A stretch of 64,000 nt of DNA, from IMG/VR virus record IMGVR_UViG_3300022562_000659. One strand, written 5' to 3'. Shown here piece after piece: positions 9,272-61,463 of the stretch (the first letter of the stretch is position 1; every line of letters starts with the position of its first letter). The notes under the pieces are model-generated. The model ran no database searches, was not told the DNA's origin, and worked only from the letters and a program-made list of their open reading frames with translations. Source of the stretch: a virus. Its lineage: Duplodnaviria > Heunggongvirae > Uroviricota > Caudoviricetes. The position numbers and the translations under genes are program-made.

Positions 9272-9646
9272 ATGTTCTCAGAAGAGGATGCTAAATCTCT
9301 TTCTGAGTGGCGGGTTGAATTGAAGAGAAACGGAAGGACTCATTGGTTGAGATTTTATTCAGCCATGATGGGTTCTTCCGTTTCATCTGCTCCTAGATTC
9401 TACAAGGCACTCAAATTGTATGGTGAGTGGCCCATGTTTGAAGCAATAGTCGCCTCGTCTTCCGCCACCCTCAATGGTGACCCTCTCAATTATGTGTTGA
9501 AGGTATGTTCTGCCAAGTGGAAGGAAATGCAGACAGATGCAGATGAAGAGGATGAATACCTTGCTGAGATCGAGAGAATCAAAGATGCCAGCCACAAGAG
9601 AAATGAAGAGTTGGCTGCTAAATTGAAGAAGGTGCAGGATGGATAG
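9272..9646 (+). CDS. hypothetical protein
   Basis: 124 aa ORF with a GGGGTAGCC RBS-like sequence. Confidence 0.4.
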   Translation: MFSEEDAKSLSEWRVELKRNGRTHWLRFYSAMMGSSVSSAPRFYKALKLYGEWPMFEAIVASSSATLNGDPLNYVLKVCSAKWKEMQTDADEEDEYLAEIERIKDASHKRNEELAAKLKKVQDG

Positions 9647-10280
9647 TGCTATCCACTCCCTCACCGTATCACGCATACCTGCTAAAACCGGAATTGAATT
9701 TATACGTAAACATCATTATTCCCACGGATGCCACAACGGTCCCTTATGTTGGGGGTTGTTTGATGGGGAAACTCTCGTTGGTGCGTTAGCCATTGCCACT
9801 CCATGTAGTGAGAATGTCAGGGCTAGCGTTTTTGGTGTTGAATACAAACAGCATGTGACTGAGTTACATAGATTGGTAGTGTTGGATGGATACGGGAAAA
9901 ATACCGAATCTTATTTTATATCGAAAGTTTTACGAGACTTATACAAGCAGAGGCCCGACCTTTGGGCCGTCCTCTCTTTTGCGGATGCAACTGAGGGACA
10001 CGTCGGAACAATCTATCAGGCTACTAATGCAATATATACAGGACGTACTCAACGAGCATGGTTCTATCTTGATGGAGATCGTCTTAGGCATCCCCGACAA
10101 AACGGAATCAATATCTCCGCCGACGATGCCCGAAAAAGAGGATGGAGTCGTGTTAGAAGAGAGGGCAAGTATCGATACCTATTCCTCCTTCCTACAGCAA
10201 AGACAGAACGTAGACGGGTCCGGAGACTAGTTATTATGCCATCACTTCCCTATCCAAAGAAGGAGAGTTTGGGTGAGTAG
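9639..10280 (+). CDS. hypothetical protein (possible DNA-modification accessory, overlaps MTase start)
   Basis: 213 aa, translationally coupled (overlapping) with the downstream N6/N4 methyltransferase. HHYSHG and GTIYQATN motifs are present. Confidence 0.4.
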   Translation: MDSAIHSLTVSRIPAKTGIEFIRKHHYSHGCHNGPLCWGLFDGETLVGALAIATPCSENVRASVFGVEYKQHVTELHRLVVLDGYGKNTESYFISKVLRDLYKQRPDLWAVLSFADATEGHVGTIYQATNAIYTGRTQRAWFYLDGDRLRHPRQNGINISADDARKRGWSRVRREGKYRYLFLLPTAKTERRRVRRLVIMPSLPYPKKESLGE

Positions 10281-11001
10281 GCTTATTCTTGGGGATTGTA
10301 TCAAGGTAATGAAAAATACCATTGAAGATGCATCTATTGACATGATTTTATGCGACTTACCTTACGGAATAACAGGAATCAGTTGGGATATTCCTATACC
10401 TTTTGCTCCATTATGGGAGCAGTATGAGCGTATCATCAAGCCTAACGGGGCTATAGTGCTGACCGCCGCACAACCATTTACAAGTGCGCTTGTGATGAGC
10501 AATCCATCCCTATTCAAATATGAGTGGATATGGGAAAAGGACAAGCCAAGTAATTTTGGTGCAGCAAAGAGTCAACCATTACGATACCATGAGAACGTGC
10601 TTGTATTCTATAAGCGTCCTCCAACATACAATCCAGTAATGTGGAAAGGTAATCTTAATCATTCCGTGGGTAAGGGCATACGAAAAGGTTCTGATGAACA
10701 TGGCAAGGGAGCTGTTGTTTACTACAAGAACAATAATGGTATGAAGTATCCCAAGTCAGTGATTAAATTCAATCGGGAGACTGGGCTGCACCCCACACAG
10801 AAGCCTGTGTCATTGTTTGAATATTTAATCAGAACGTATACCAATGAGGGAGAAACTGTTCTCGATAATGCATGCGGGAGCGGAACTACAGGTATTGCTT
10901 GTTTGAATTCAGGTCGAGACTTTATCCTTATTGATAATGATTTGCAGCATTTTGATACTGCAAGGAAAAGAATTGAGGAATATGAATTTAATTCCGTATA
11001 A
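10273..11001 (+). CDS. DNA methyltransferase, beta-class N6-adenine/N4-cytosine (motif IV before motif I)
   Basis: DLPYG (DPPY-type motif IV) is near the N-terminus. The SAM-binding motif I LDNACGSGTTG is near the C-terminus. Confidence 0.85.
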   Translation: MSRLILGDCIKVMKNTIEDASIDMILCDLPYGITGISWDIPIPFAPLWEQYERIIKPNGAIVLTAAQPFTSALVMSNPSLFKYEWIWEKDKPSNFGAAKSQPLRYHENVLVFYKRPPTYNPVMWKGNLNHSVGKGIRKGSDEHGKGAVVYYKNNNGMKYPKSVIKFNRETGLHPTQKPVSLFEYLIRTYTNEGETVLDNACGSGTTGIACLNSGRDFILIDNDLQHFDTARKRIEEYEFNSV

Positions 11002-12301
11002 TGATGATTTTGAGCGTGCAGTAATTGTTGGTGTTCTTCAAGACCCAATGCTATTGCCACGCATAACTGAATTTATTGAGCCAGCGGATTTCTACAAAGA
11101 AAACCACAAAGAAATCTTCAAAGCAATTTCCTCTACAGCACCAGACAATCTTGATAGCCTGACGATTGAGGATAAATTGCGCTCCAATGAAGGGGCATTG
11201 ACATACTTTCGTGAGTTGGTACAGGACTCAGAAAAGATTCTTCCAAGCCTATCCAACATCATGTTCTATGCGGAGACTATCAAGGGAAAATCCAAACTTC
11301 GTGCGGGTATTGACCTAGGCAGAGAGATCACAGCTGTCTGCTATGCCCCAACATCTGATCCTGATGAGGCTATTCAGCAATTGGAGCAGATGTTTGCACA
11401 GTTTCTACAGGCTCGTGTTTTAGATAACAAACTTGAATCCACTACGGAGTCATTCAAGAAATTTATCGAGGGATTGAATACGCGAGCAACCAAGGTTGAG
11501 GGAGTCAAATCCGGATTCATTGAAGTAGACCTGATGCTACAACGAATGGAGGGATTGATTGTCCTTGCTGCTCGTCCGAGCATGGGTAAGACTGCATTTG
11601 CTATCAATATAGCACGAAATATTGCAGCGACTCGTCCTGTCTTGTTCTTTTCTCTAGAGCAGAGCAAAGAACAGGTGTTTGAACGGCTCTTAGCCGCAGA
11701 AGCGGAAGTTGATCTAGAAGATATTCGCAGTGGTGCATTTCTCGCTGACAAGAAATCGATGGAGAGTATACAGGATGCAAATTACAGGCTAGAGCATGTG
11801 ACTGACAATATCCATATCGATGACAAGGCACAGGTTCCTGCAAGTTATATCTCTTCGGTGTCCCGACAGAAGCGGTATGAATGGGGAGATTTGGGACTGA
11901 TTGTGGTTGACTATCTGCAAATCATGCGCCATACGTCATCTGGTAACAAGACCGATCAGATTGGTGATACTGTCAATGAATTGCGTGCACTAGGAAAGGA
12001 ATTAGATTGTCCTATTATTCTGCTTTCCCAGTTGAGTAGAAATAATGAGCAACGTACTGAAGGAAAGGTTAAGAATAGGCGACCGGAATTAACTGACCTT
12101 CGTGGTTCTGGAGATATTGAACAATCAGCAGATGTGGTTATATTCCTCTACAGAGATTCTTATTATGGTACTCCTACAACAGACACTGATGTGGCAGAGA
12201 TTATCATCAAGAAGAATCGTAATGGTCGCCAAGGAATTGTACTACTAGACTGGGAGAGTGCATATGTTAAATTTAAGAATCCCAACGTTCGACGCCGCTG
12301 A
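10982..12301 (+). CDS. replicative DNA helicase, DnaB-like
   Basis: ATG at 10982 follows a GAGGAA RBS. The DnaB N-domain signature IPYNDDFERAVIVGVL, Walker A GKTAFAINIA, Walker B IVVDYLQ and LSQLSR arginine-finger region are present. Confidence 0.85.
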   Translation: MNLIPYNDDFERAVIVGVLQDPMLLPRITEFIEPADFYKENHKEIFKAISSTAPDNLDSLTIEDKLRSNEGALTYFRELVQDSEKILPSLSNIMFYAETIKGKSKLRAGIDLGREITAVCYAPTSDPDEAIQQLEQMFAQFLQARVLDNKLESTTESFKKFIEGLNTRATKVEGVKSGFIEVDLMLQRMEGLIVLAARPSMGKTAFAINIARNIAATRPVLFFSLEQSKEQVFERLLAAEAEVDLEDIRSGAFLADKKSMESIQDANYRLEHVTDNIHIDDKAQVPASYISSVSRQKRYEWGDLGLIVVDYLQIMRHTSSGNKTDQIGDTVNELRALGKELDCPIILLSQLSRNNEQRTEGKVKNRRPELTDLRGSGDIEQSADVVIFLYRDSYYGTPTTDTDVAEIIIKKNRNGRQGIVLLDWESAYVKFKNPNVRRR

Positions 12302-13028
12302 AGGCTTAGTACTTGATCCAAATAAACCTACAATGCTGGACTTGTTCTGTGGTGTGGGTGGATCAGGAGTTGGATATCATCGGGCTGGGTTTAATATAAT
12401 CGGTGTTGACCATAAACCACAACCTAATTATCCGTTTTGGTTTATTGAATATGATGCCTTGGAAGTTCTTGAAGATATTAATCTATTGAATTATTTCAAT
12501 ATAAAGATCGTTACCGCAAGTCCTCCTTGCCAAAGTTATTCCAAGCATGTATCAAGTGATGGTAAATGGTCGAAGGGGAAGCATTCGGGGTTCAATGAAC
12601 CTCAACTTATTGCTCCACTACGTGAGAAACTTCGCGCACTGAATATGCCGTATGTTATAGAGAATGTGTTCGGGGCACGGGATGAATTGATTGATCCCCT
12701 ATTTCTATGCGGCACAATGTTTGGTCTAGGCACTCGTAGACATAGATTATTTGAGAGTACTTTTGACATTCCACAACCTGCACACAAGAAGTGTCGGGGC
12801 GTTACGCATCCAGTAGCTGAGGAATGGATTGCAGTTAATCCTAAAACTCGGAACAGAAAAATTTATTCTGTTGTCGGCAAGGGCAGACAGACTGGAAGCC
12901 TTGACGTGTGGAAAATATTAATGGGAATTGATTGGGCCGAACATGACTTTGAGTTATCTGAGGCTATCCCTCCAGCCTATACTGAATATATAGGGAAGGA
13001 GATTATAATGCATGGACGACTTCTATAA
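12264..13028 (+). CDS. short C5-cytosine methyltransferase-like protein (paralog 1)
   Basis: Motif I LDLFCGVGG, motif IV SPPCQSYS, motif VI YVIENV and RRHRLFE are present. It is only about 255 aa with no obvious target-recognition domain. It is paralogous to 55242..55913. Confidence 0.7.
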   Translation: MLNLRIPTFDAAEGLVLDPNKPTMLDLFCGVGGSGVGYHRAGFNIIGVDHKPQPNYPFWFIEYDALEVLEDINLLNYFNIKIVTASPPCQSYSKHVSSDGKWSKGKHSGFNEPQLIAPLREKLRALNMPYVIENVFGARDELIDPLFLCGTMFGLGTRRHRLFESTFDIPQPAHKKCRGVTHPVAEEWIAVNPKTRNRKIYSVVGKGRQTGSLDVWKILMGIDWAEHDFELSEAIPPAYTEYIGKEIIMHGRLL

Positions 13029-29485: not shown

Positions 29486-30256
29486 ATGACAAATCAGCAA
29501 CTCCTTGTGGTTGATGGAAAGGTTTATGCAACCGCAATTGTCAGAGAGATTGATCCGCAGCAATTCCTGGATATTATGAGTAATGCGGCAACTCAGGCAA
29601 TTAATCTAACCCTTCCTCCATTCCCTGATAACACTCGGTGGTATCATCACGTTCCAAATCTGTTTTACGGATTTGTTGTTGAACTTCGACCGGGCCTTTT
29701 TACATTCAAGCATGAGCGATGGACTCGCTCTTTCAATGTGGCACTGCCGTGGCAGTATTTCGTTATTACATATTATTTTGATCTTGGAACCAGTGTTTGG
29801 AGAATGCAGACTCCTTCGCTTCTTTGGGGTAAGAATCGCGTTTCTAGGTTGACTGATCGAACTCTTTATCGACCAGAACTTCCGAACATTTTTGATGGTG
29901 GTTGTAACATTTGCATTGGTACAACTGCTCCTGATAGTCGGATGCATCCTTTTGAAAGGACCCAGGATTTTATTCAGACTTTCTATTCTGAAGCATCCCT
30001 GTTCAACGATGACTTGGATTGGGATTTCCCGAATGGGTATGATAATGCTGTTGAGTGGGCTAAAGCCTCTCGTGCAAATCCACTGTGCTGGATGAATTGG
30101 GATATCTTTGACACTAATAATAATTATAGCACATATCGATTGACCGATTACTTCACGCTGCCGCAGTATGATAGTAATGGCAATGAGATTTTCCCAATTA
30201 GAAATCTGGATGATGTTCTTCGACAGGCTCAGACTGTTGGTAGGAGGCCGTGGTAA
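29486..30256 (+). CDS. E2-like ubiquitin-conjugating-fold protein (putative)
   Basis: The segment LPNIFDGGCNICIG resembles the UBC active-site HPN-x-GxIC(L) motif with a catalytic Cys. It sits between the Ubl and JAB genes in BilA-B-C-D order. Confidence 0.45.
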   Translation: MTNQQLLVVDGKVYATAIVREIDPQQFLDIMSNAATQAINLTLPPFPDNTRWYHHVPNLFYGFVVELRPGLFTFKHERWTRSFNVALPWQYFVITYYFDLGTSVWRMQTPSLLWGKNRVSRLTDRTLYRPELPNIFDGGCNICIGTTAPDSRMHPFERTQDFIQTFYSEASLFNDDLDWDFPNGYDNAVEWAKASRANPLCWMNWDIFDTNNNYSTYRLTDYFTLPQYDSNGNEIFPIRNLDDVLRQAQTVGRRPW

Positions 30257-31521
30257 TGACTTCTAATCCCCTTAGTCTTTTCGATGTTCTTCCTCTGAAG
30301 GGGAAGTTGGAAGACCTTCCGGAGCCTACGGTTCCATATTTCTTTGTCGCAGGCGATGGCCTGTTTATGCGGCGAACAACTTCAATTGGAGTTGTTACCG
30401 AAAGGCAGAGTGAATGGCCGAAGCAACTTAAGAAGGCGGATATCAAGAACGGTAATCTCAAATATACTGCTCCGCCTATCCCACAGTCAATTATCGAGCG
30501 GGCCTGGGGTTTCTTTAAGTATGCTTTTGAGGAAAACCAGTCCGAAGCCGAGGTTTTGATTCTGTTTGATCCGGAGCGCAAGCGATATCGATTGTTTGCT
30601 CCACATCAGGAATGCACTATCGCTAGTGTTCACAGTCTTTATGACCCGGCAGATATCCCGAATGGATATCAGGTAATCGGCTCTATTCATTCTCATTGTG
30701 ACTTTGGTGCATTCCATTCAGGTGTGGATACTGATGATGCATCTAGTTTCAACGGATTGCATATCACTATTGGGCATGTGGATCGGGAAAATTCTCCCGA
30801 ATTCGCTGTCATGGTTATGCTTAATGGCCTTCGTTGGGATTACGAAATCACAAACGTGGCTGCGACTTCTGAAAAGATGACTCCGCGCGGTTTTCCGGCT
30901 GTGTGGAAGAACATGTTTGGAAGTTATACTGAGATTGCAGAGCGAGAATTCAAGAGCCTTACTCCTGATGATATCAAGAAGTGGACTGATTCTCGCAAGC
31001 CCAAGACGACTTTCAAGTCATCGGGTAGTTCAATCCTTACTGGTGCACGTATCTGGAATGGATACGATGACGATGATGATTCCTGGAATTGGTGGAGGTC
31101 TTGGGGTCCGAAGTCTCAGTCAGAATGGTCTTCTGATAGGGCTAAGGATAAGGCGGAAAAGAAGCGGGATTCTCGTTATACGGACGAGAACAAGAGCAAT
31201 CTTCGATACTGCTACGAGACTCGCGGTTACGTTCCCAAGCATTGGCTTGATTCCAAGGGAATGCTTCTGCGACAGTATATCGAAGAGGCATTTGAATTGG
31301 AGTTCGCAAGGCTGTTTGATGCAGCACTTACCCGTGGTTTTTGGGTTTCATGTTCCATCAATAAGATGGACGATGATACTATTGAAAAGTTTTCGGATAA
31401 TGCTGATGAGGCCGAGATTCGGCTTCTGAATGAGGGTAAGGATTATCTTCCGGGCTGGGCTACCGTGCGGGAGAATGAGGTTTCCTCTAGCGATACTCGA
31501 AAGTATGAGCCAGAGGATTAA
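30256..31521 (+). CDS. JAB/JAMM (MPN+) metalloprotease-domain protein with long C-terminal extension
   Basis: The upstream Glu is in FAPHQE. The complete JAMM motif HSHCDFGAFHSGVD (H-x-H-x7-S-x2-D) is present. ATG at 30256 follows a TAGGAGG RBS and overlaps the previous stop (TAATG). Confidence 0.7.
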   Translation: MTSNPLSLFDVLPLKGKLEDLPEPTVPYFFVAGDGLFMRRTTSIGVVTERQSEWPKQLKKADIKNGNLKYTAPPIPQSIIERAWGFFKYAFEENQSEAEVLILFDPERKRYRLFAPHQECTIASVHSLYDPADIPNGYQVIGSIHSHCDFGAFHSGVDTDDASSFNGLHITIGHVDRENSPEFAVMVMLNGLRWDYEITNVAATSEKMTPRGFPAVWKNMFGSYTEIAEREFKSLTPDDIKKWTDSRKPKTTFKSSGSSILTGARIWNGYDDDDDSWNWWRSWGPKSQSEWSSDRAKDKAEKKRDSRYTDENKSNLRYCYETRGYVPKHWLDSKGMLLRQYIEEAFELEFARLFDAALTRGFWVSCSINKMDDDTIEKFSDNADEAEIRLLNEGKDYLPGWATVRENEVSSSDTRKYEPED

Positions 31522-31526
31522 CCATT

Positions 31527-31829
31527 ATGGTATGGATTATTGTCTTTGGTAATCCAATGGAGGGGTTCAATTATATTGGCCCCTTCAATATCCTATCTGA
31601 AGCAGAGAGATACGCAACGGGTTCCAATCTTACAAGTGATTATTCATGGTGGATTGCTCCCGTAGAACGGCCTCGCGAATCCGACCTAAAGAAATTCTGT
31701 GAATACTTTCCCAGCCTGGCAATTGAGGAAAACTATCACGCAACTGAATGTATTGAATCTAATAGAGATCGCGGATCAAGTCCATATATTTGTCTTGCAA
31801 AGGCAAGTGCCTCGGAGAGTATGAAGTGA
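31527..31829 (+). CDS. hypothetical protein
   Basis: 100 aa between the JAB and E1-like genes. Confidence 0.35.
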   Translation: MVWIIVFGNPMEGFNYIGPFNILSEAERYATGSNLTSDYSWWIAPVERPRESDLKKFCEYFPSLAIEENYHATECIESNRDRGSSPYICLAKASASESMK

Positions 31830-32521
31830 CTTCCCGTTACCTTATGGTAGGTGCTGGTGGAACCGGAACCCATTTGCTGCACCCGTTGATCAATTATCTT
31901 GATACATTCCATACTGGCTCTGATTATCTGCTTGGAGTCATGGATGGAGATCAGGTCGAACAGAAAAATTTGTCTCGCCAACTGTTCCAGGCAACAGATA
32001 TCTACAGCAATAAGGCAAAAGCGGCGATCCATCCCTTTGAGTCCAATACAAGTGTTCGGGCATTTCCTGAATTTCTTGGTAAGGATAATATCGATAAGTT
32101 TATCACAGACGGTACTGTTGTTCTGATCTGTGTTGACAATTTCCCGGTGCGCGCCCGAATTGAGCAGCATTGCAATAACCTAGATAACGTTGTCGTTATC
32201 AATGGTGGAAATGAAGAGGATTCGGGCTCTTGTCAGATTTGGGTTAGGGAGAATGGGACTGATATCACGCCCCGGCTTTCCTTTCTGCATCCCGAAATCT
32301 ATAAGGTGGAAGAGGATCGCGCAGAACTTTCTTGTCAGGCAATTGCACAACTCCCCGGTGGAGAGCAATTGATTATCGCAAATATGAGTAGCGCCATGTG
32401 GATGCTTACAGCACTCATGGATTACCATCGTAGTAAGGTTTCTTGGACCGAGTTGCATTTTGATCTTTCTGCCGGAAAGACATTCGGTATGGATAACCGT
32501 ACTTTGAGCGGGTGGAAGTAA
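31790..32521 (+). CDS. E1-like ubiquitin-activating enzyme (ThiF/MoeB family)
   Basis: Rossmann motif MVGAGGTGT. E1 signature MDGDQVEQKNLSRQLF (DxDxVExSNLxRQ). A CxxC region is present. The start codon is uncertain (TTG at 31790 or downstream). Confidence 0.75.
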   Translation: MSCKGKCLGEYEVTSRYLMVGAGGTGTHLLHPLINYLDTFHTGSDYLLGVMDGDQVEQKNLSRQLFQATDIYSNKAKAAIHPFESNTSVRAFPEFLGKDNIDKFITDGTVVLICVDNFPVRARIEQHCNNLDNVVVINGGNEEDSGSCQIWVRENGTDITPRLSFLHPEIYKVEEDRAELSCQAIAQLPGGEQLIIANMSSAMWMLTALMDYHRSKVSWTELHFDLSAGKTFGMDNRTLSGWK

Positions 32522-55161: not shown

Positions 55162-55241
55162 TTTTTGGGTTGAAGCCGAAGCTCTCTTTCAGTTATAGTT
55201 GCATGTAGGCGACCTTGCCTCATCCATCTGGAAGGGAATTT

Positions 55242-55913
55242 GTGAAAAGGCTTGCTGTACTCGATTTGTTCTGCGGTGCTGGTGGTGCCTCAGAGGGATA
55301 CAATCGCGCGGGAGCATTAGTCACAGGCGTGGATATCAATCCCCAGCCTAGATACCCATTTCAATTTGTACAGGCTGATGCACTTGCAGTACTCCGTGGG
55401 GAAGTCCCTACGATTGATCCTAATGCATTTGATCTTATCCACACTAGTCCACCGTGTCAACGATACAGCACGATGACCAAGCGTTGGGGTACAGAGAATG
55501 CTCATCCCGATCTTGTTGCTCCAACTAGGGAATTACTTCAGAAACTAGGCAAATTTTACGTTATCGAAAACGTGCCGGGATCACCATTGAACAATCCTGT
55601 GCGATTGTGCGGGTCTATGTTCAATCTAGGTATCGCTGGTACTGAATGGCAGCTTCGTCGTCATCGTTTATTTGAAGCATCATTTTTTATTATGTCACAA
55701 AAGTGCGCCCATAAGGGACGCGCTGTAGGGGTGTATGGTAACTCAGGGGGATCATCAAAGAGGGATGGATTAGAGTTTCCCAATACAGATGGATGGCGTG
55801 AGGCCATGGATATTTCTTGGATGACTGGTAAGGAATTGAGTGAATCTATTCCTCCAGCATATACCCGATATATTTTTGAAGAATTTAAGTTTTGGATTCG
55901 GAAGGATGGCTGA
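55242..55913 (+). CDS. short C5-cytosine methyltransferase-like protein (paralog 2)
   Basis: GTG after GGAAGGGAA. It has LDLFCGAGG, SPPCQRYS, YVIENV, RRHRLFE and IPPAYT. It is collinear with 12264..13028. The stop codon lies inside the 5' end of tRNA-Ser. Confidence 0.7.
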   Translation: MKRLAVLDLFCGAGGASEGYNRAGALVTGVDINPQPRYPFQFVQADALAVLRGEVPTIDPNAFDLIHTSPPCQRYSTMTKRWGTENAHPDLVAPTRELLQKLGKFYVIENVPGSPLNNPVRLCGSMFNLGIAGTEWQLRRHRLFEASFFIMSQKCAHKGRAVGVYGNSGGSSKRDGLEFPNTDGWREAMDISWMTGKELSESIPPAYTRYIFEEFKFWIRKDG

Positions 55914-55999: not shown

Positions 56000-56233
56000 G
56001 TGCAAAAGAATAATATAGTAGAATCAGTATTAACTGGAATAATTTTTATATTTGTTCCTTTGTTAGTAGGTGGGGCTATTATAGGTATCACATATCTAGT
56101 ATTTCAGCAAATTTTAGCCCTGATTAACTACTTTAAGTGGACACCTGTAGAAGTTATTGTTATCAGTATTATATTGCTTGCAGCATGGATTTTAGGTGCC
56201 GGTACGATTGTGGTGTTTGATAATGATTCTTAA
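56000..56233 (+). CDS. small membrane protein (2-3 TM)
   Basis: Hydrophobic segments IIFIFVPLLVGGAIIGITYLVF and VIVISIILLAAWILGAG. Confidence 0.45.
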   Translation: MQKNNIVESVLTGIIFIFVPLLVGGAIIGITYLVFQQILALINYFKWTPVEVIVISIILLAAWILGAGTIVVFDNDS

Positions 56234-56606
56234 TCGTAGAATTGCTGTTGTTGGTTCTCGGGAATTTCGCAATTATACACAGTTAGACAAGAAACTGTCT
56301 GAAGTTGTGGGATTTGATGATGAGTTAGTCAGTGGTGGCGCGATAGGTGTTGATTCTATGGCCCAGCGATGGGCAAAGGATCACGGAAATGCAATCCACA
56401 TCTATTATCCGCGATGGAACGATCCGCATACTGGAACGTATGATCGTGGAGCTGGATTTAAGAGAAACAAGGTTATTGTAGAAAATGCCGATCTTGTTCT
56501 CGCTTTTTATCAGCGGGGACGATTTCAGCAAGGTGGAACAGCTAACACGGCCAAGTGGGCGCGTGAGTTGGGGGTACAGTTGTTTGAGTTTGAGGAAGAG
56601 GAATAA
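56223..56606 (+). CDS. SLOG/DprA-like Rossmann-fold protein (DUF2493-like)
   Basis: IAVVGSREFRNY...VVSGGAIGVDSMAQRWA. Confidence 0.4.
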   Translation: MILNRRIAVVGSREFRNYTQLDKKLSEVVGFDDELVSGGAIGVDSMAQRWAKDHGNAIHIYYPRWNDPHTGTYDRGAGFKRNKVIVENADLVLAFYQRGRFQQGGTANTAKWARELGVQLFEFEEEE

Positions 56607-56608
56607 AG

Positions 56609-57580
56609 GTGCTAGGACTTCTTATTAGTGCAACAATCTTTATTGTGACGATTGCACTTATCAGTTACTTTGTAGTAAAGCGATTTATTTGGGAGGATCG
56701 TGCAGAAAAGGCAAAGTATGCCCGAAGTGATAAGCCACCTATTGGGAAGGCTCCACGTACTTGGCTTATTATTCCTACGATTATTTTAGGGTTTCTATTT
56801 TTAATTGCTTCTTTCGGAATCACAGAGGTCCCCGCTGGTTCTGTTGGTGTTATTACTTCGTTTGGTAGGGTAAATGAGGGAACACTTCCTTCCGGCCTTA
56901 CGTATGTTGTTCCAGTTATGAATCAGGTTGTCATCATTGATACGCGGGTTCAGGTTTATGAATTCGCTGATATTGAGGGGGCAACTAGTGATACGCAGGC
57001 AGTCAGACTATCAGGTACAGTAAACTATCGTGTTGATGGAGTTACTGCTTGGCGCTTGTACCGTGATGTTGGTATTGATTTTGCAACTAAGATTTTCAAT
57101 CGTCCTGCGGAAACAGCTCTAAAGAGTATTGTACCAAAGTATACTGCTATTCAAGTTATCTCAAAGCGAGAGGAAATTGCTCTAGCCGCTACTGCAATGC
57201 TGGAGCCGCAGGTTGAACAGTATGGCGTGTCTGTTGAAGCATTCTATGTCTCAAATATTGGACTGAATGTTGCGTTCCTTGATTCTGTCGAGCAGAAGCA
57301 GATTGCGCAGCAGGAGACTCTGCGTGCACAGCAACTAGTTGAAAAGGCAAAGCAGGAAGCAAACGCACGTATTGAAACTGCAAAGGGTGAGGCTCAGTCT
57401 GCTATTGAGCGTGCCCGTGGTGAGGCAGAGGCTAATCGTCAGATCAGCGCATCTTTGACTGATCAAGTGCTTTTGTCCCGATATATCGATAAATTGAGTG
57501 ATAATATTCAGGTAATGCTGGTTCCTGCGGGCCAGAATACTCTTCTTGATTTGAAGAGCCTCATTTCGCAGAAGCAGTAG
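56609..57580 (+). CDS. SPFH/band-7 (stomatin/prohibitin/HflK-like) membrane protein
   Basis: N-terminal TM helices followed by an SPFH-like core. The C-terminal coiled coil is Ala/Glu/Gln-rich (AQQETLRAQQLVEKAKQEANARIETAKGEAQ). Confidence 0.65.
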   Translation: MLGLLISATIFIVTIALISYFVVKRFIWEDRAEKAKYARSDKPPIGKAPRTWLIIPTIILGFLFLIASFGITEVPAGSVGVITSFGRVNEGTLPSGLTYVVPVMNQVVIIDTRVQVYEFADIEGATSDTQAVRLSGTVNYRVDGVTAWRLYRDVGIDFATKIFNRPAETALKSIVPKYTAIQVISKREEIALAATAMLEPQVEQYGVSVEAFYVSNIGLNVAFLDSVEQKQIAQQETLRAQQLVEKAKQEANARIETAKGEAQSAIERARGEAEANRQISASLTDQVLLSRYIDKLSDNIQVMLVPAGQNTLLDLKSLISQKQ

Positions 57581-58180: not shown

Positions 58181-58371
58181 AATAGTTGAATTTTAGTAAA
58201 TAAGGGGCTTGACCACGGAACATGGATATAAGTAAACTATCTCCAGAAGAGCGAAAGCGCATCGCCTCTGCTTGGGACAAGCCGTTGAGTATGCCAAGGC
58301 CCGTTCCAAAGAGTGAACCTAAGAAAAAGGGCCGAAAGCCCAAAGAAACATCAGAAGAATAATATTCGTGC

Positions 58372-58440
58372 AGTAGTGTAGAATTCAGTTACTTCTCAAC
58401 TGTTAATTGATAATAAAGCCTGGATTCGCCTTAATTCTCT
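58372..58440 (+). ncRNA. structured repeat element E0 (family of 7; homolog of 60585..60655)
   Basis: Starts GTAGTGTAGAATTCAGTTACTTC and ends CTGGATTCGCCTTAATTCTC. The ends can pair. It lies upstream of the Ro60-like gene. Confidence 0.35.
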
Positions 58441-58487
58441 GCCATAATATTTATCATCACCTAGAAGGTGTATTGAAGGAGAAGGAA

Positions 58488-60035
58488 ATGGCTACTTTAA
58501 ACAAGTCACGCAGTACCGTGCGTGCTGCAAAAAATAAGTCTGAGATTACTGTTAATCTTCACGGTAGTCCTGCATTTAAGATGGCTGCAACTGATCGTCT
58601 TATCGAGCGCACTGTAGGTGCGTTCTGGTCGGAAGATGCATTCTACAGCAAGGGAAGCACTATTGCTGCTGAGATTGTCAAGGACGTTAGGGAAGTCGCT
58701 CAAACGAATCCTAAGTTTCCTTTGCAGTTGGCGGCATGGGCAAGAAATGAGTTGTATATTCGTACAACTCCGCAGGTTCTTCTAGTAGAGGCTGCGAATA
58801 TCGAGGCGTGCAAGCCGTTTGTTCGTGAGTATACTCCGAAGATTGTCAAGCGTGCTGACGAGTTGGGTGAGGTAATCGCTTATCAGTTACAGGCGCATGG
58901 AAAGCCTATTCCAAATTCGTTGAAGAAGGGATTGGCTGATGCATTCGCAAAGTTTGACGAGTATCAGTTGAACAAGTATGATTCCAGCAAGACTGAGGTT
59001 TCGCTGGGGGACGTACTGCACTTGATTTATCGTCGTGAGGGATATCCGGTTTCCAAGGCCCTTTGGAATTATCTTGTCAATGATGAGGTAGATGCAGAGG
59101 CATTGCCAAAGATCGGCGCTCTCAAGGAAATGTTGAAGTCGAAGACTTTCGATGACAATGCACGCGATCTTATTGCGAAGTCTAGCGCAACATGGGAAAC
59201 TGTGATAAGCCACTTTGGATCAACCAAGGAGGTTTGGGAATCTGTAATTCCTAACATGGGATATATGGCACTTCTTCGTAATTTACGCAACTTTGAACAG
59301 AAGGGGGTTGATCTCAATCCTGTTATTGCCCGGATTTCTGATCCGGAGCAGGTTAAAAGATCAAAGCAACTTCCGTTCAGATTTTACAGTGCCCTTGTAA
59401 ATATTGAAAAGCCTGTTCTTCGGACAGCTGTTTCTCGTGCATTTGAGGCTTCTGTTTCAAATGTTTCGCTTCCGGGCAGAACAGGAATTCTTGTTGATCT
59501 TTCAGGTTCAATGAGTAGTCGATTGTCCGACAAGTCTAATCTCTCATACCGTGATGTTGGTTCTATTATGGGGGCTATCGCTGTCCGCAAGGCAGATGAT
59601 AGCGAGGTTGTTGGATTTGGTTCTACAGCGGAACGCATTAGGTTGAATCAAGATGACACAATGATGACCAACAAGGACAGGATCAGTGGTACTGATGTAG
59701 GCGGTTCAACATACGCTGGACTAGGAATGAAAGTTTTGGCTGATTATGGTGAATTTGATCGTATTATTCTTATTTCGGATATGCAATGCTATGGTCAATC
59801 TCCCAACTATTTAACTGGATATACCACAACAGTGAATGAAGAGTGGAAGAAGTACAGTAACAAGTATCCAAATGCTCGCTTGTACTCCTTGGATTTGCAT
59901 TCATATGGAACAAAGCAGTTTCCATCTACTGATGGAAAGGTAACAACGATCACTGGCTGGTCTGATAAGGTTCTTGATTTTATCAACCTCTCTGAAAAGA
60001 GAAATACCATGATCTCCGAAATTTCAAAGTGGTAG
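58488..60035 (+). CDS. rsr: Ro60/TROVE-domain protein with C-terminal vWA (Rsr-like)
   Basis: ATG after GAAGGAGAAGGAA. The TROVE-like segments MALLRNLRNF and LPFRFYSAL resemble Ro60 ALLRNLG and HPFHIL. The vWA MIDAS motif is ILVDLSGSMS. Length and domain order match Ro60. Confidence 0.7.
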   Translation: MATLNKSRSTVRAAKNKSEITVNLHGSPAFKMAATDRLIERTVGAFWSEDAFYSKGSTIAAEIVKDVREVAQTNPKFPLQLAAWARNELYIRTTPQVLLVEAANIEACKPFVREYTPKIVKRADELGEVIAYQLQAHGKPIPNSLKKGLADAFAKFDEYQLNKYDSSKTEVSLGDVLHLIYRREGYPVSKALWNYLVNDEVDAEALPKIGALKEMLKSKTFDDNARDLIAKSSATWETVISHFGSTKEVWESVIPNMGYMALLRNLRNFEQKGVDLNPVIARISDPEQVKRSKQLPFRFYSALVNIEKPVLRTAVSRAFEASVSNVSLPGRTGILVDLSGSMSSRLSDKSNLSYRDVGSIMGAIAVRKADDSEVVGFGSTAERIRLNQDDTMMTNKDRISGTDVGGSTYAGLGMKVLADYGEFDRIILISDMQCYGQSPNYLTGYTTTVNEEWKKYSNKYPNARLYSLDLHSYGTKQFPSTDGKVTTITGWSDKVLDFINLSEKRNTMISEISKW

Positions 60036-60126
60036 TCGGGTGGGATTAAGTGAAACTTAGAGCGACACAGCAAGCGGTATCAAACCCGTTAGCAAAGGCG
60101 GTATAAATCCGCGATCCCCCTCCTAT

Positions 60127-60201
60127 GGCCCTATCGTCTATCGGACAGGACACCAGACTTTCAATCTGATAAGCGGGGTTCGACTCCCCGTAGGGCTACC
60201 A
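60127..60201 (+). tRNA. tRNA-Glu (anticodon TTC)
   Basis: Acceptor GGCCCTA/TAGGGCT (G-U at 1-72). D-stem GTCT/GGAC. Loop CTTTCAA. T-arm CGGGG-TTCGACT-CCCCG. A and CCA at the 3' end. Confidence 0.7.
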
Positions 60202-60219
60202 ATGTCAATAGAAATTATG

Positions 60220-60355
60220 AGTAGTGTGGTTATCAGATACTTCGCTAGGGACGACAGAGTGTAGGTGCAATTCCTGCTCCCCGTGCAAATCATACGGGGA
60301 TAGTGTAACAGCAGCACATGACAATATTCTGTAATCGTTTGTTCTCTCATAATTA
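60220..60355 (+). ncRNA. structured repeat element E1
   Basis: Starts AGTAGTGTGGTTATCAGATACTTCG. It contains a 6-bp hairpin CCCCGT...ACGGGG. The 3' end is TCTCTCATAATTA, like other family members. Confidence 0.3.
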
Positions 60356-60433
60356 TTTTCTAGAACATTAGAGGTTCTTCCCCTGCACCGGCTCAACCGC
60401 TTAAAACATGAAATGATGTGTGCAGCAAATTAG

Positions 60434-60580
60434 GTAGTGTAGTTAAGAGGTACTTCGAAGCCAAATTTAACTTTGGTGGTGTAATGGGCAGCACGCTGGA
60501 CTTTTAATCCAGAGGTTTCGGTTCGATTCCGTACCTGTTCTCTGACGATTTATTCTCCTAATTAAATTGATATTAAGTTT
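60434..60580 (+). ncRNA. tRNA-like structured element E2 (Y-RNA-like candidate)
   Basis: The 5' end GTAGTGTAGTTAAGAGGTAC can pair with the 3' end GTACC...CTCT...CTAATTA. The internal tRNA-like module has a D-arm (GTGTAATGGGCAGCAC), an anticodon-like arm (CTGGA-CTTTTAA-TCCAG) and a T-arm (GGTTCGATTCC). No canonical acceptor stem is present. Confidence 0.4.
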
Positions 60581-60584
60581 GACG

Positions 60585-60655
60585 TAGTGTAGAATCCAGA
60601 TACTTCGGTTTTGACAGCCCCCATGTTTCTTCTGGATTCACTAAATTCTCGTCAA
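60585..60655 (+). ncRNA. structured repeat element E3 (long bulged hairpin)
   Basis: TAGTG-tag-AATCCAGA pairs with TCTGGATT-CACTA, a 13-bp stem with a 3-nt bulge. The loop is about 30 nt. Confidence 0.4.
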
Positions 60656-60685
60656 ATATTCCAGTTAGTATTACTACGTATAGCG

Positions 60686-60812
60686 TAGTGTTGATATCTG
60701 ATACTTCTGACGATTTATGTACAATATTTGGGGGCCTCGTCAATCGACTGGCTTGCGACAGGTTATAGGCCCCGTTTTACAGATATCTTACAATAGCTTC
60801 TCGTTATACGTA
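60686..60812 (+). ncRNA. structured repeat element E4
   Basis: The 5' end GTAGTGTTGATATCTGATACTTC has GATATCTG pairing with CAGATATC near the 3' end. The internal stem is GGGGCCT...AGGCCCC. Confidence 0.35.
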
Positions 60813-60816
60813 TTAT

Positions 60817-60892
60817 ATCTCTGTCGTCTAATGGTTCAGGATCGCTGTTTCTCAGGCAGCAAATACGGGTTCGAATCCCGTCAGGGATACCA
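60817..60892 (+). tRNA. tRNA (probable Glu, anticodon CTC)
   Basis: Acceptor ATCTCTG/CAGGGAT (one G-U). T-arm ACGGG-TTCGAAT-CCCGT. A and CCA at the 3' end. Anticodon stem GCTGT/GCAGC with loop TTCTCAG. The D-stem is only 3 bp, so the identity is less certain. Confidence 0.5.
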
Positions 60893-60909
60893 GATATATA
60901 TTCGTTAGG

Positions 60910-61045
60910 ATAGTGTAGAGATCAGTTACTTCGCACTTGTAATGCCCTAGTTGTTGGTTCGAATCCAACCGGTTGCAGAAATGCACTGTAGCTCAATTGG
61001 TAGAGCAGGATATGTTCTGATTTCGCCTAATTCTTCCTAAATATA
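60910..61045 (+). ncRNA. tRNA-like structured element E5 with T-arm module preceding D-arm module
   Basis: The 5' end ATAGTGTAGAGATCAGTTACTTCG is followed by a T-arm (GTTGG-TTCGAAT-CCAAC). A textbook D-arm follows (TGTAGCTCAATTGGTAGAGCA). The 3' end CTGATTTCGCCTAATTCTTCC is homologous to the E0 3' end. Confidence 0.4.
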
Positions 61046-61240
61046 AAAGTCATCGCCCATCCAGTAGCACAACGTACTAGAATAGGTTCCCGAGTATCTG
61101 GCCGGTGTGCCAGCACCGTATACTTGTAGAAAATTCTTTTGTGCTACCGGATGCGCGACGGCGCAGAATCCGTATGCTGTAGGAATGTTCTGTGATAGCG
61201 TCCAGTAAATTCCAGTAAATGCAGTAAGCGGTATAAAATT

Positions 61241-61378
61241 TAGTGTAGTGACTTGTAACGGTTACTTCGTAAATCAATGGGTAGATTATTTGACTTCAAA
61301 TCAAAATGTTGTGGGTTCAAATCCCACCGAAGCCGAAAGGCTTGCCGCAAGGCTATCCGTTACTAATTTTTCTCACTA
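61241..61378 (+). ncRNA. Y-RNA-like element E6: terminal stem enclosing a tRNA-like domain with TCA anticodon
   Basis: The 5' end TAGTG...GTAACGG (61241..61261) pairs with the 3' end CCGTTAC...CACTA (61357..61378). The tRNA-like core is 61263..61335. It has D-stem AATC/GATT, anticodon stem TTTGA/TCAAA with loop CTTCAAA (anticodon TCA), T-arm GTGGG-TTCAAAT-CCCAC, and an acceptor that is only 5/7 paired with no CCA. Two tetraloop hairpins (AGCC-GAAA-GGCT and GCC-GCAA-GGC) follow. A GCGGTATAAAAT motif lies 5 nt upstream. Confidence 0.45.
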
Positions 61379-61388
61379 GTTAATACAT

Positions 61389-61463
61389 TCCCTCGTAGCT
61401 CAGCGGTAGAGCACTCGGCTGTTAACCGATTGGTCCTAGGTTCGAATCCTAGCGGGGGAGCCA
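61389..61463 (+). tRNA. tRNA-Asn (anticodon GTT)
   Basis: Acceptor TCCCTCG/CGGGGGA (one G-U). D-arm GCTC-AGCGGTA-GAGC. Loop CTGTTAA. T-arm CTAGG-TTCGAAT-CCTAG. G and CCA at the 3' end. Confidence 0.75.

Follow-up and report, generated by a model that had tools for sequence, protein, structure and literature searches.

A candidate Y RNA with a complete tRNA-like cloverleaf beside the Ro60 gene of an uncultivated phage

The genome fragment IMGVR_UViG_3300022562_000659, a 64,000-nucleotide stretch of phage DNA from the IMG/VR collection (called the window below), contains an element, Y7, of about 140 nt on the + strand (~61240-61379). ARAGORN calls it a transfer RNA (tRNA) with the anticodon tca at 61262-61336. 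Judging from sequence comparison, Y7 is, with a probability of roughly 0.78, a Y RNA that mimics a tRNA. It is best read as a native-order cloverleaf joined at its acceptor end to a candidate Ro60-binding stem, which would be the topology of Yrn1 and the reverse of YrlA. The assignment is made because a Ro60 (Rsr) gene lies nearby, the terminal scaffold of Y7 is common to its neighbors, this scaffold is linked to the Rsr gene on the same strand, its inner stem covaries, and it matches the Rfam model of YrlA. The original prediction, made from the letters of the window, had left a choice between an opal suppressor tRNA that needs processing and a tRNA mimic. The mimic half of that choice is supported and the suppressor half is not; the link to a Ro60 gene and to Y RNAs was absent from it.

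A cloverleaf body in a terminal scaffold

The central part of Y7 is matched by the Rfam tRNA model (RF00005) with 58.6 bits (E=4e-10 for the whole window) at 61265-61332, over model positions 3-68 only. Its modules follow in the order D arm, anticodon arm, variable loop (5 nt) and T arm. The D arm (61272-61287) consists of the stem AAUC/GAUU and the loop AAUGGGUA, which includes G18 G19. The anticodon arm (61289-61305) has a perfect 5-bp stem, UUUGA/UCAAA, and a 7-nt loop, CUUCAAA, with the "anticodon" UCA at 61296-61298. The T arm (61311-61327) has the perfect stem GUGGG/CCCAC and the loop UUCAAAU. The conserved tertiary bases U8, A14, A15-U48, G18 G19, U33, U54 U55 C56 and G53-C61 are all present. 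Thus the TCA cloverleaf described by the original prediction is confirmed by ARAGORN, a check it had proposed, and by Rfam RF00005, and its good D arm, perfect 5-bp anticodon stem with the loop CTTCAAA and perfect T arm are all found in the sequence. A true selenocysteine tRNA, the label given by ARAGORN, is rejected: the D stem is 4 bp, the variable loop is 5 nt and the long extra arm is missing.

The ends of the cloverleaf are different. The acceptor, UACUUCG/CGAAGCC, forms five of seven pairs (61265-61269 with 61328-61332), with A2.C71 and U1.C72 mismatched, and no CCA is encoded after it, as had been noted before. Its 3' strand runs on into hairpins and the scaffold stem. Since the scaffold is joined at the acceptor end, there would be no free end to charge, and charging would be impossible. 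The flanking sequences form a 7-bp inner stem, GUAACGG/CCGUUAC (61255-61261 with 61357-61363), and a 5-6 bp outer stem, UUAGUG/CACUAG (61240-61245 with 61374-61379). The earlier description of a 7-bp plus 5-bp flanking stem therefore holds, and both stems appear in the minimum free energy (MFE) and centroid structures, together with the T arm and two GNRA hairpins. The 140-nt element folds more stably than shuffled sequences (z = -2.8; 2/200). Alternatively, the 3' acceptor strand can enter a hairpin, AAGCC-GAAA-GGCUU (61330-61343), and the energy model favors this fold over the acceptor helix (-34.5 vs -30.9 kcal/mol). The parts of Y7, all on the + strand, are as follows.

61240-61245, +: 5' strand (UUAGUG) of the outer scaffold stem; its partner in the MFE and centroid structures is 61374-61379; 96.7% paired in five orthologs
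61246-61254, +: 5' strand of the internal loop, UAGUGACUU (consensus in the family GUAGUGNAG); its position in the YrlA model makes it the presumed site of Rsr contact
61255-61261, +: inner scaffold stem, 5' strand GUAACGG; 100% paired, 6/7 pairs compensatory
61262-61269, +: junction motif UUACUUCG; its UUAC corresponds to the YUAY of YrlA, and its CUUCG is also the 5' strand of the acceptor-like helix
61270-61327, +: tRNA-like body, with U8 A9, D arm, anticodon arm, variable loop (61306-61310) and T arm; from ARAGORN, Rfam and covariation
61328-61332, +: acceptor-like helix, 3' strand CGAAG, followed by CC unpaired with U1 A2; no CCA
61330-61343, +: GAAA-tetraloop hairpin AAGCC-GAAA-GGCUU, window-specific and absent from orthologs; competes with the acceptor-like helix
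61344-61353, +: GCAA-tetraloop hairpin GCC-GCAA-GGC, in the MFE structure and, by alignment, also in the orthologs L001, L135 and L195
61357-61363, +: inner scaffold stem, 3' strand CCGUUAC, from ortholog covariation
61364-61373, +: 3' internal-loop strand UAAUUUUUCU (family consensus YUAAUUCUC), which follows the inner-stem 3' partner in most members
61374-61379, +: 3' strand (CACUAG) of the outer scaffold stem; the tRNA-Asn begins at 61389, 10 nt downstream

The scaffold family and its linkage to the Ro60 gene

The Rsr gene lies 1.2 kb from Y7, with Y7 downstream on the same strand. The nearest solved structure to its product is the Ro60 of Thermus phage phiLo (9KOP/9L5Y, E=1.6e-28). Y7 is the last of seven elements, Y1-Y7, that carry the scaffold, and the 5' and 3' ends are paired in every predicted fold. 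The interval 58362-61055 holds, in addition to Y elements, the Rsr gene and two genuine tRNA-Glu genes interleaved with them.

58362-58450, +: Y1, from motif scan and fold; the cargo is a 24-nt loop
58488-60035, +: phage Ro60/Rsr gene, 515 amino acids, the presumed partner (Pfam TROVE 3.7e-36, vWA_Ro60 3.8e-07)
60210-60360, +: Y2, permuted, YrlA-like; from motif scan and fold
60425-60570, +: Y3, acceptor-attached and tRNA-like with the loop CUUUUAA; Rfam tRNA match to the core
60575-60665, +: Y4, from motif scan and fold; the cargo is a 24-nt loop
60675-60805, +: Y5, from motif scan and fold
60900-61055, +: Y6, permuted, YrlA-like; Rfam YrlA match

The motif TAGTGT-N-ACTTC occurs in six exact copies in the window where 0.19 are expected; the seventh copy, in Y7, is 5 nt longer by a 5-nt duplication. 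The 5' half of the scaffold consists of the outer stem, the loop GUAGUGNAG, a variable inner stem of 7-10 bp and the invariant (U/A)UACUUC(G), which leads into the cargo. The 3' half consists of the inner-stem partner, the loop YUAAUUCUC (also UAAUUCUC) and the outer-stem partner. The junction motif UUACUUCG is found in all seven elements of the window and in about 50 elements in relatives, irrespective of cargo. Because the same motif precedes unrelated cargo in other elements, the CUUCG of the Y7 acceptor is the invariant scaffold motif.

Two kinds of tRNA-like cargo are seen. The core of Y3 (60475-60535) matches the Rfam tRNA model with 46.9 bits at positions 6-65 only and is not called by ARAGORN. 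Its loop, CUUUUAA, is the anticodon loop of tRNA-Lys(UUU), and an extra hairpin, CCAAA-UUUAAC-UUUGG, stands between the scaffold motif and the D arm. Y6 carries the permuted YrlA module of T arm, closed acceptor hairpin and D arm (GUAGCUCAAUUGGUAGAGC), with 34.5 bits (E=1.8e-5 in a 1.2-kb search); the same arrangement is found in Y2 and in the ortholog of Y2 in the relative L001.

Relatives were viral and metagenomic contigs found by an Rsr protein search (labels beginning with L). About 18 loci have an Rsr at least 50% identical to that of the window and a common tRNA order, Ser-Ser-Ala-(Cys) ... Rsr ... Glu ... Asn-Gln. In the 89 kb of close-clade loci (Rsr at least 41% identical) the scaffold motif occurs 42 times on the Rsr strand and not once on the other strand, and all 42 copies are within 1.5 kb of the Rsr gene. 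The distant-clade loci have 9 copies in 404 kb, a density about 20-fold lower. Chen et al. 2014 sought candidate Y RNAs on the strand of the Ro60 ortholog and within 4 kb of it, and both Y7 and the scaffold motif family are located there. The two halves of the inner stem also fit each other. Of the true 5'/3' pairings 52% had a contiguous complementarity score of at least 7, anchored directly before the conserved 3' motif, against 8% of mismatched ones; for a score of at least 8 the figures are 31% and 3%. An unanchored test that allowed G.U pairs anywhere did not discriminate true from mismatched pairings.

The Rfam YrlA model aligns full length to an element of the relative L198 with 32.8 bits, and in this alignment its outer stem, internal loop, 7-bp inner stem and YUAY are in register with the Y7 family. 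The position of GNCGAAN0-1G in YrlA is taken by GKAGUGNAG in the Y7 family, and that of YUAY by the UUAC of UUACUUCG. Y7 itself has a negligible, partial match to the YrlA model (22.4 bits).

Megablast and blastn found no close relatives among deposited phages, and neither Rsr alignment nor an element-specific DNA pattern found relatives among representative cellular genomes, where only chance matches in coding DNA were seen. The element-specific pattern found only L001 and L195 among viral contigs, plus chance matches in coding DNA. A generic motif scan of viral contigs gave mostly chance single matches and one lead, L087 (IMGVR_UViG_3300034683_000087), another Rsr-bearing phage. On its minus strand, at ~14105-13985, a gene of tRNA shape combines a perfect 7-bp acceptor (AGUCGGU/ACCGACU) with discriminator C and an encoded CCA. 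It has D and T arms, and in place of an anticodon arm there is a closed hairpin that carries the same scaffold motifs, ..UUUUUCUCC-UAUAA-GGUAGUGUAG..UUACUUC.

Several other features of the locus were seen. Seven candidate Y RNAs at one locus is an unusually large number. Scans of the Y-element cluster for sigma-70 promoters and intrinsic terminators showed no enrichment, and no RNA-repair partners (RtcB, ligases, kinases) were found among the 39 open reading frames (ORFs) of the window that were scanned. Between Y6 and Y7, at 61047-61238, lies a conserved block with a long-range helix, GUCAUCGCYCAYCCRGUAG ... CUACCGGAUGCGCGACGGC, of 18 predicted pairs, three of them compensatory, and a variable apex of 40-120 nt. 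It has no Rfam family match and may be another structured RNA of the Rsr locus; copies are present in L001 (7368-7585), L130 (2996-3210), L135 (3496-3635), L137 (6287-6390) and L195 (6298-6431). The 5' strand of Y2 (60222-60246, GUAGUGUGGUUAUCAGAUACUU) closely resembles the upper stem of human Y4 RNA, GUAGUGGGUUAUCAGAACUU; this may be coincidence, since the middle part varies between elements.

Orthologs, the acceptor end and the suppressor question

Orthologs of Y7 are present in L001, L135, L195 and L137, each with the duplicated UAGUG, the inner stem, UACUUCG and the cloverleaf body. The Rsr proteins of these genomes are only 53-58% identical to that of the window, and the element lies directly upstream of tRNA-Asn in the window and in three of the four others. 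Pairs were counted on an edited MAFFT alignment, which was N-padded for register where single-base gaps were misplaced and from which the variable hairpin insert was removed. Over all helices of the five orthologs 93.8% of cells are paired and 17 of 32 pairs are changed on both sides, which none of 500 shuffles matched. Shifting the partner by 1-3 columns lowers the pairing to 25-46%. The counts for the individual helices in the five orthologs are as follows.

Outer stem: 96.7% of cells paired, 1/6 pairs compensatory
Inner stem: 100% of cells paired, 6/7 pairs compensatory
D stem: 85% of cells paired, 3/4 pairs compensatory
Anticodon stem: 100% of cells paired, 5/5 pairs compensatory
T stem: 100% of cells paired, 2/5 pairs compensatory
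Acceptor-like helix: 76% of cells paired, 0/5 pairs compensatory

The 17 double-sided changes, which keep the scaffold, anticodon and T stems, and the folding z-score of -2.8 argue against a chance or degenerate tRNA pseudogene without function. The poor acceptor, the missing CCA and the degenerate D arm of the L137 ortholog (a 4-nt loop without G18 G19) would fit such a pseudogene, which is nevertheless scarcely credible.

The acceptor end behaves differently from the body. Of its seven possible pairs five form in the window and three or four in L001, L135 and L195; pair 3-70 is confined to the window, and at 1-72 and 2-71, both unpaired in the window, these three relatives can form at most one of the two pairs. 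No ortholog encodes CCA. The loop is CUUCAAA (UCA) in the window and L137, CUCUUAA (CUU) in L001 and L195, where ARAGORN calls tRNA-Lys, and UCUUUAA (UUU, with C33) in L135, where ARAGORN makes no call. The Rfam tRNA match covers positions 3-68 in the window, 4-67 in L001 and 5-66 in both L195 and L135. The eight other ARAGORN tRNAs of the window match at 1-71, and so do 93 of 94 tRNA matches in 15 distant Rsr loci. From the core-only coverage, the covariation and the variable anticodon it follows that selection has kept the scaffold and the tRNA body, not the acceptor end or codon specificity.

These data bear directly on the suppressor option. A genuine opal suppressor, tRNA-Sup-UCA, would be cut out by RNase P, trimmed at its 3' end, completed with CCA by the host enzyme and charged (e.g. 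with Trp), and would promote read-through of UGA in host or phage genes. The excellent core, with 58.6 bits and a complete set of tertiary bases, would suit it, as would the identity of the loop CUUCAAA in the window and L137. Base 73 of Y7 would be G, and G at this base is the identity rule of bacterial tRNA-Trp. Phage tRNA genes often lack an encoded CCA, so its absence here is compatible with a tRNA, and the YrlA of M. smegmatis, which is cleaved by RNase P and then receives CCA, is a precedent for the processing. However, the acceptor forms only 5/7 pairs in the window and 3-4 in the orthologs L001, L135 and L195, and it shows no compensatory change; its 5' strand is the invariant scaffold motif of about 50 elements with unrelated cargo; its 3' strand is predicted to be sequestered in the GAAA hairpin; and orthologs at the same position carry CUU or UUU rather than UCA. 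Chen et al. held acceptor stems shorter than 7 bp responsible for the failure of RNase P to cleave other Y RNAs.

Codon usage points the same way. Gene calls under the standard code cover 85% of the window and TGA ends 29 of 103 of them (28%), among them Pfam-complete genes such as a DNA polymerase A that reaches profile position 380/381. Genome-wide recoding of TGA is rejected on these two figures, and the earlier statement that it is unlikely is upheld. Long in-frame extensions past the stop follow 3/29 TGA, 6/29 TAG and 2/45 TAA stops; those of the three TGA-terminated genes are at least 100 codons, and those of the six TAG-terminated genes at least 60. Programmed TGA read-through is rejected as a signal, since extensions are no commoner after TGA than after TAG, and no Pfam link was found between TGA-terminated genes and the downstream ORFs that would fuse to them. 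The survey of TGA usage that had been suggested, made on gene calls within the window, thus gave no read-through signal specific to TGA, an ordinary stop here. With an anticodon that is not conserved, three to five acceptor pairs, no CCA and a core-only Rfam match, a suppressor tRNA is improbable. The mimic option, by comparison, is supported by the scaffold that Y7 has in common with six neighbors near the Rsr gene and by covariation in all but the acceptor.

A different tRNA, in the distant Rsr contig L007 (3897-3969), is situated 1 kb upstream of Rsr; its anticodon is CTA (ARAGORN "Pyl"), and it matches the Rfam model full length (69.9 bits, positions 1-71). Unlike Y7, it looks like a genuine amber-suppressor candidate. 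Two further distant Rsr contigs, L145 (9111-9191) and L154 (8931-9011), have 81-nt Rfam transfer-messenger RNA (tmRNA) matches above the gathering score within tRNA clusters; these could be tRNA-like fragments or pieces of a split tmRNA.

Some observations weigh against Y7 as a Y RNA. First, the covariation counts rest on few sequences, the five orthologs. Second, the loop CUUCAAA is the same in the window and L137 despite the changed flanking stem, which hints that the loop sequence matters. Third, L137 has an alternative register with 6/7 acceptor pairs, overlapping the inner stem, and its Rfam match spans 1-71; some elements of the Y7 class, such as this ortholog, may therefore undergo a tRNA-like processing fate. 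Fourth, all matches to the YrlA model (~33-35 bits) are below the Rfam gathering score of 69, and the scaffold is therefore a divergent family, not a curated member of YrlA. Fifth, GUAGUGNAG and its Y7 version UAGUGACUU are unlike the published Rsr-binding motifs GNCGAAN0-1G and GGUCCGA; because of this difference, binding of Rsr is argued from position and linkage.

The last two points would also suit a scaffold that serves as a processing or stability cassette, an entry site for RNase III or RNase E or a protective stem, with Y7 a decaying or re-purposed tRNA trapped inside. Genuine tRNAs lie among the elements, and neither promoters nor terminators are enriched, so that the cluster must be processed, which would likewise fit a cassette. 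Set against this, the motif is on the Rsr strand only and within 1.5 kb of the gene in the 89 kb of the close clade, and is about 20-fold sparser in the distant 404 kb; the scaffold is in register with the Rsr stem of YrlA, YUAY included; two of the sisters of Y7 have the permuted order T/acceptor/D by which YrlA is defined; and all three tRNA arms show compensatory changes, which contradicts decay. A mere cassette is accordingly unlikely, and the assignment of Y7 as a Y RNA is preferred.

Elsewhere in the window are other genes of note. Adjacent ORFs at 30250-32521 encode a ThiF/E1-like domain (1.2e-19) and, with a weak match of 23 bits, a prokaryotic JAB domain, a pair for ubiquitin-like conjugation/deconjugation of the sort linked to phage-host conflict. 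DNA-modification genes are dense in the window: the regions 9639-13028 and 55215-55913 encode a Mom-family protein (2.8e-35), one N6/N4 methylase and two C5-cytosine methylases, and the ORF of the second C5 methylase overlaps tRNA-Ser at its start (55900). ORFs resembling dCMP deaminase and nucleotide kinase are found at other places. SLOG/YspA (DprA-like) and SPFH/Band-7 ORFs (56196-57580) lie in the tRNA cluster between two tRNA-Ser genes.

Proposed role and comparison with known systems

Y7 would thus consist of two modules. The first is the terminal scaffold, which has the architecture of the Rsr-binding stem of YrlA and would bind Rsr. The second is a putative effector, the near-perfect cloverleaf with the bases for an L-shape, attached through the short and poorly paired acceptor-like helix. 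Rsr would sit at the amino-acid end, with the tRNA elbow and the anticodon stem-loop held away from its ring and pointing outward. Y7 is probably co-transcribed with the tRNA cluster, and its 3' end is probably set by the RNase P cut of the tRNA-Asn 10 nt downstream. The systems of D. radiodurans, where the stability of Y RNAs depends on Rsr, of Salmonella and of Thermus phage phiLo suggest by analogy that the ribonucleoprotein may gate Rsr or tether it to a partner. The partner could be a host exoribonuclease such as PNPase, for which there is precedent, or, alternatively or additionally, a tRNA-recognizing protein, given the exposed anticodon arm. Binding by Rsr, processing and the identity of the effector are all inferred.

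A more specific proposal is that Y7 and Y3 are anticodon-arm decoys or adaptors. With a tRNA anticodon stem-loop held on a Ro60 ring, they could catch or detect host proteins that cleave or recognize anticodon loops, such as anticodon nucleases, and link these to Ro60-associated exonucleases. Five of the eight loops in the Y7 element class are tRNA-Lys-like (CUUUUAA, CUCUUAA twice, UCUUUAA and CCUUUAA). Many anticodon nucleases of anti-phage defense target tRNA-Lys. The unchanged loop of the window and L137, beside a stem that did change, also belongs to the case for this proposal, which is speculative and unlikely. If true, Ro60/Y ribonucleoproteins would be a counter-defense device with exchangeable tRNA "baits", and this would explain the seven-member array.

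The practical consequence concerns annotation. Standard tRNA finders label Y7 tRNA-SeC/Sup(TCA) and its orthologs tRNA-Lys(CTT). Predicted suppressor tRNAs serve as evidence of recoding in phage metagenomics, and Y RNAs of the Y7 type would be false positives in such surveys. They could be flagged by a core-only match to the tRNA model, a flanking scaffold motif and a nearby TROVE gene. A preprint (PhageMaP) raised the possibility that Y RNAs are among the tRNA genes adjoining a phage Ro60 gene, an untested suggestion to which the present data give sequence-level substance. Seven candidate Y RNAs with different cargo on one scaffold are in addition a natural system for asking what effector modules recruit.

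Y RNAs that mimic tRNAs, phage ones included, are already known. What is new is a candidate Y RNA that standard tools call a tRNA and that has a complete anticodon arm, a seven-member array in which one scaffold carries both permuted and native-order mimics, a scaffold motif unlike the published Rsr-binding motifs, which makes it a candidate Ro60-binding motif, and the restriction of all these features to an uncultivated phage clade.

Like the suppressor tRNAs of recoding phages, Y7 has an anticodon call complementary to a stop codon and lies within a phage tRNA cluster. It differs from them in lacking a full acceptor stem and a conserved anticodon, and there is no in-frame TGA in genes.

Thermus phage phiLo offers a parallel in gene arrangement: a phage-encoded Ro60 with phage Y-like RNAs adjoining its gene. 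The phiLo Ro60 was shown experimentally to bind phage-encoded Y-like RNAs and to assemble with host PNPase (PMC12135203). These RNAs, Yrl1 and Yrl2, were chosen by a CGAA motif and a stem-bulge-stem, and no tRNA-like cloverleaf was described for them in the paper, which does not use the word tRNA-like (PMC12135203).

YrlA (RF02553), found in Salmonella, M. smegmatis and mycobacteriophages, has in common with Y7 the linkage to Ro60 on the same strand, canonical T and D arms, and the scaffold plan of a 6-bp outer stem, an asymmetric internal loop, a 7-bp inner stem and YUAY. The tRNA mimic of YrlA, however, is a circular permutation, in which the Rsr stem takes the place of the anticodon arm; an anticodon loop is missing, and the acceptor stem is closed into a hairpin. 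In Y7 the order is D, anticodon, T, the anticodon loop is present, the scaffold is at the acceptor end and the loop motif is GUAGUGNAG. The permuted module, absent from Y7, is present in its sisters Y2 and Y6, while the native-order, acceptor-attached topology recurs in Y3 and in elements of L197 and L195.

The topology of Y7 is that of Yrn1 of D. radiodurans, the founding bacterial Y RNA, whose tRNA-like part keeps the native order and has its acceptor replaced by the Rsr stem (Chen et al. 2014). As compared by published description, both RNAs adjoin rsr and carry the Rsr site (a candidate site in Y7) in a terminal stem formed by their 5' and 3' ends; in both, a stem-loop occupies the anticodon position and this terminal stem the acceptor position. 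The internal-loop motif of Y7 is different, and Y7 is phage-encoded and part of a seven-member array. The tRNA likeness of Yrn1 is weaker: its D-loop features are partial, its "anticodon loop" has 6 nt and it lacks a variable loop (Chen et al. 2014). The D arm of Y7, in contrast, is complete and includes G18 G19; its anticodon loop has the canonical 7 nt with U33, its variable loop is 5 nt long, and Y7 passes tRNA finders. Y7 would therefore extend the tRNA mimicry of Y RNAs to a complete cloverleaf with an exposed anticodon arm, fuller than that of Yrn1.

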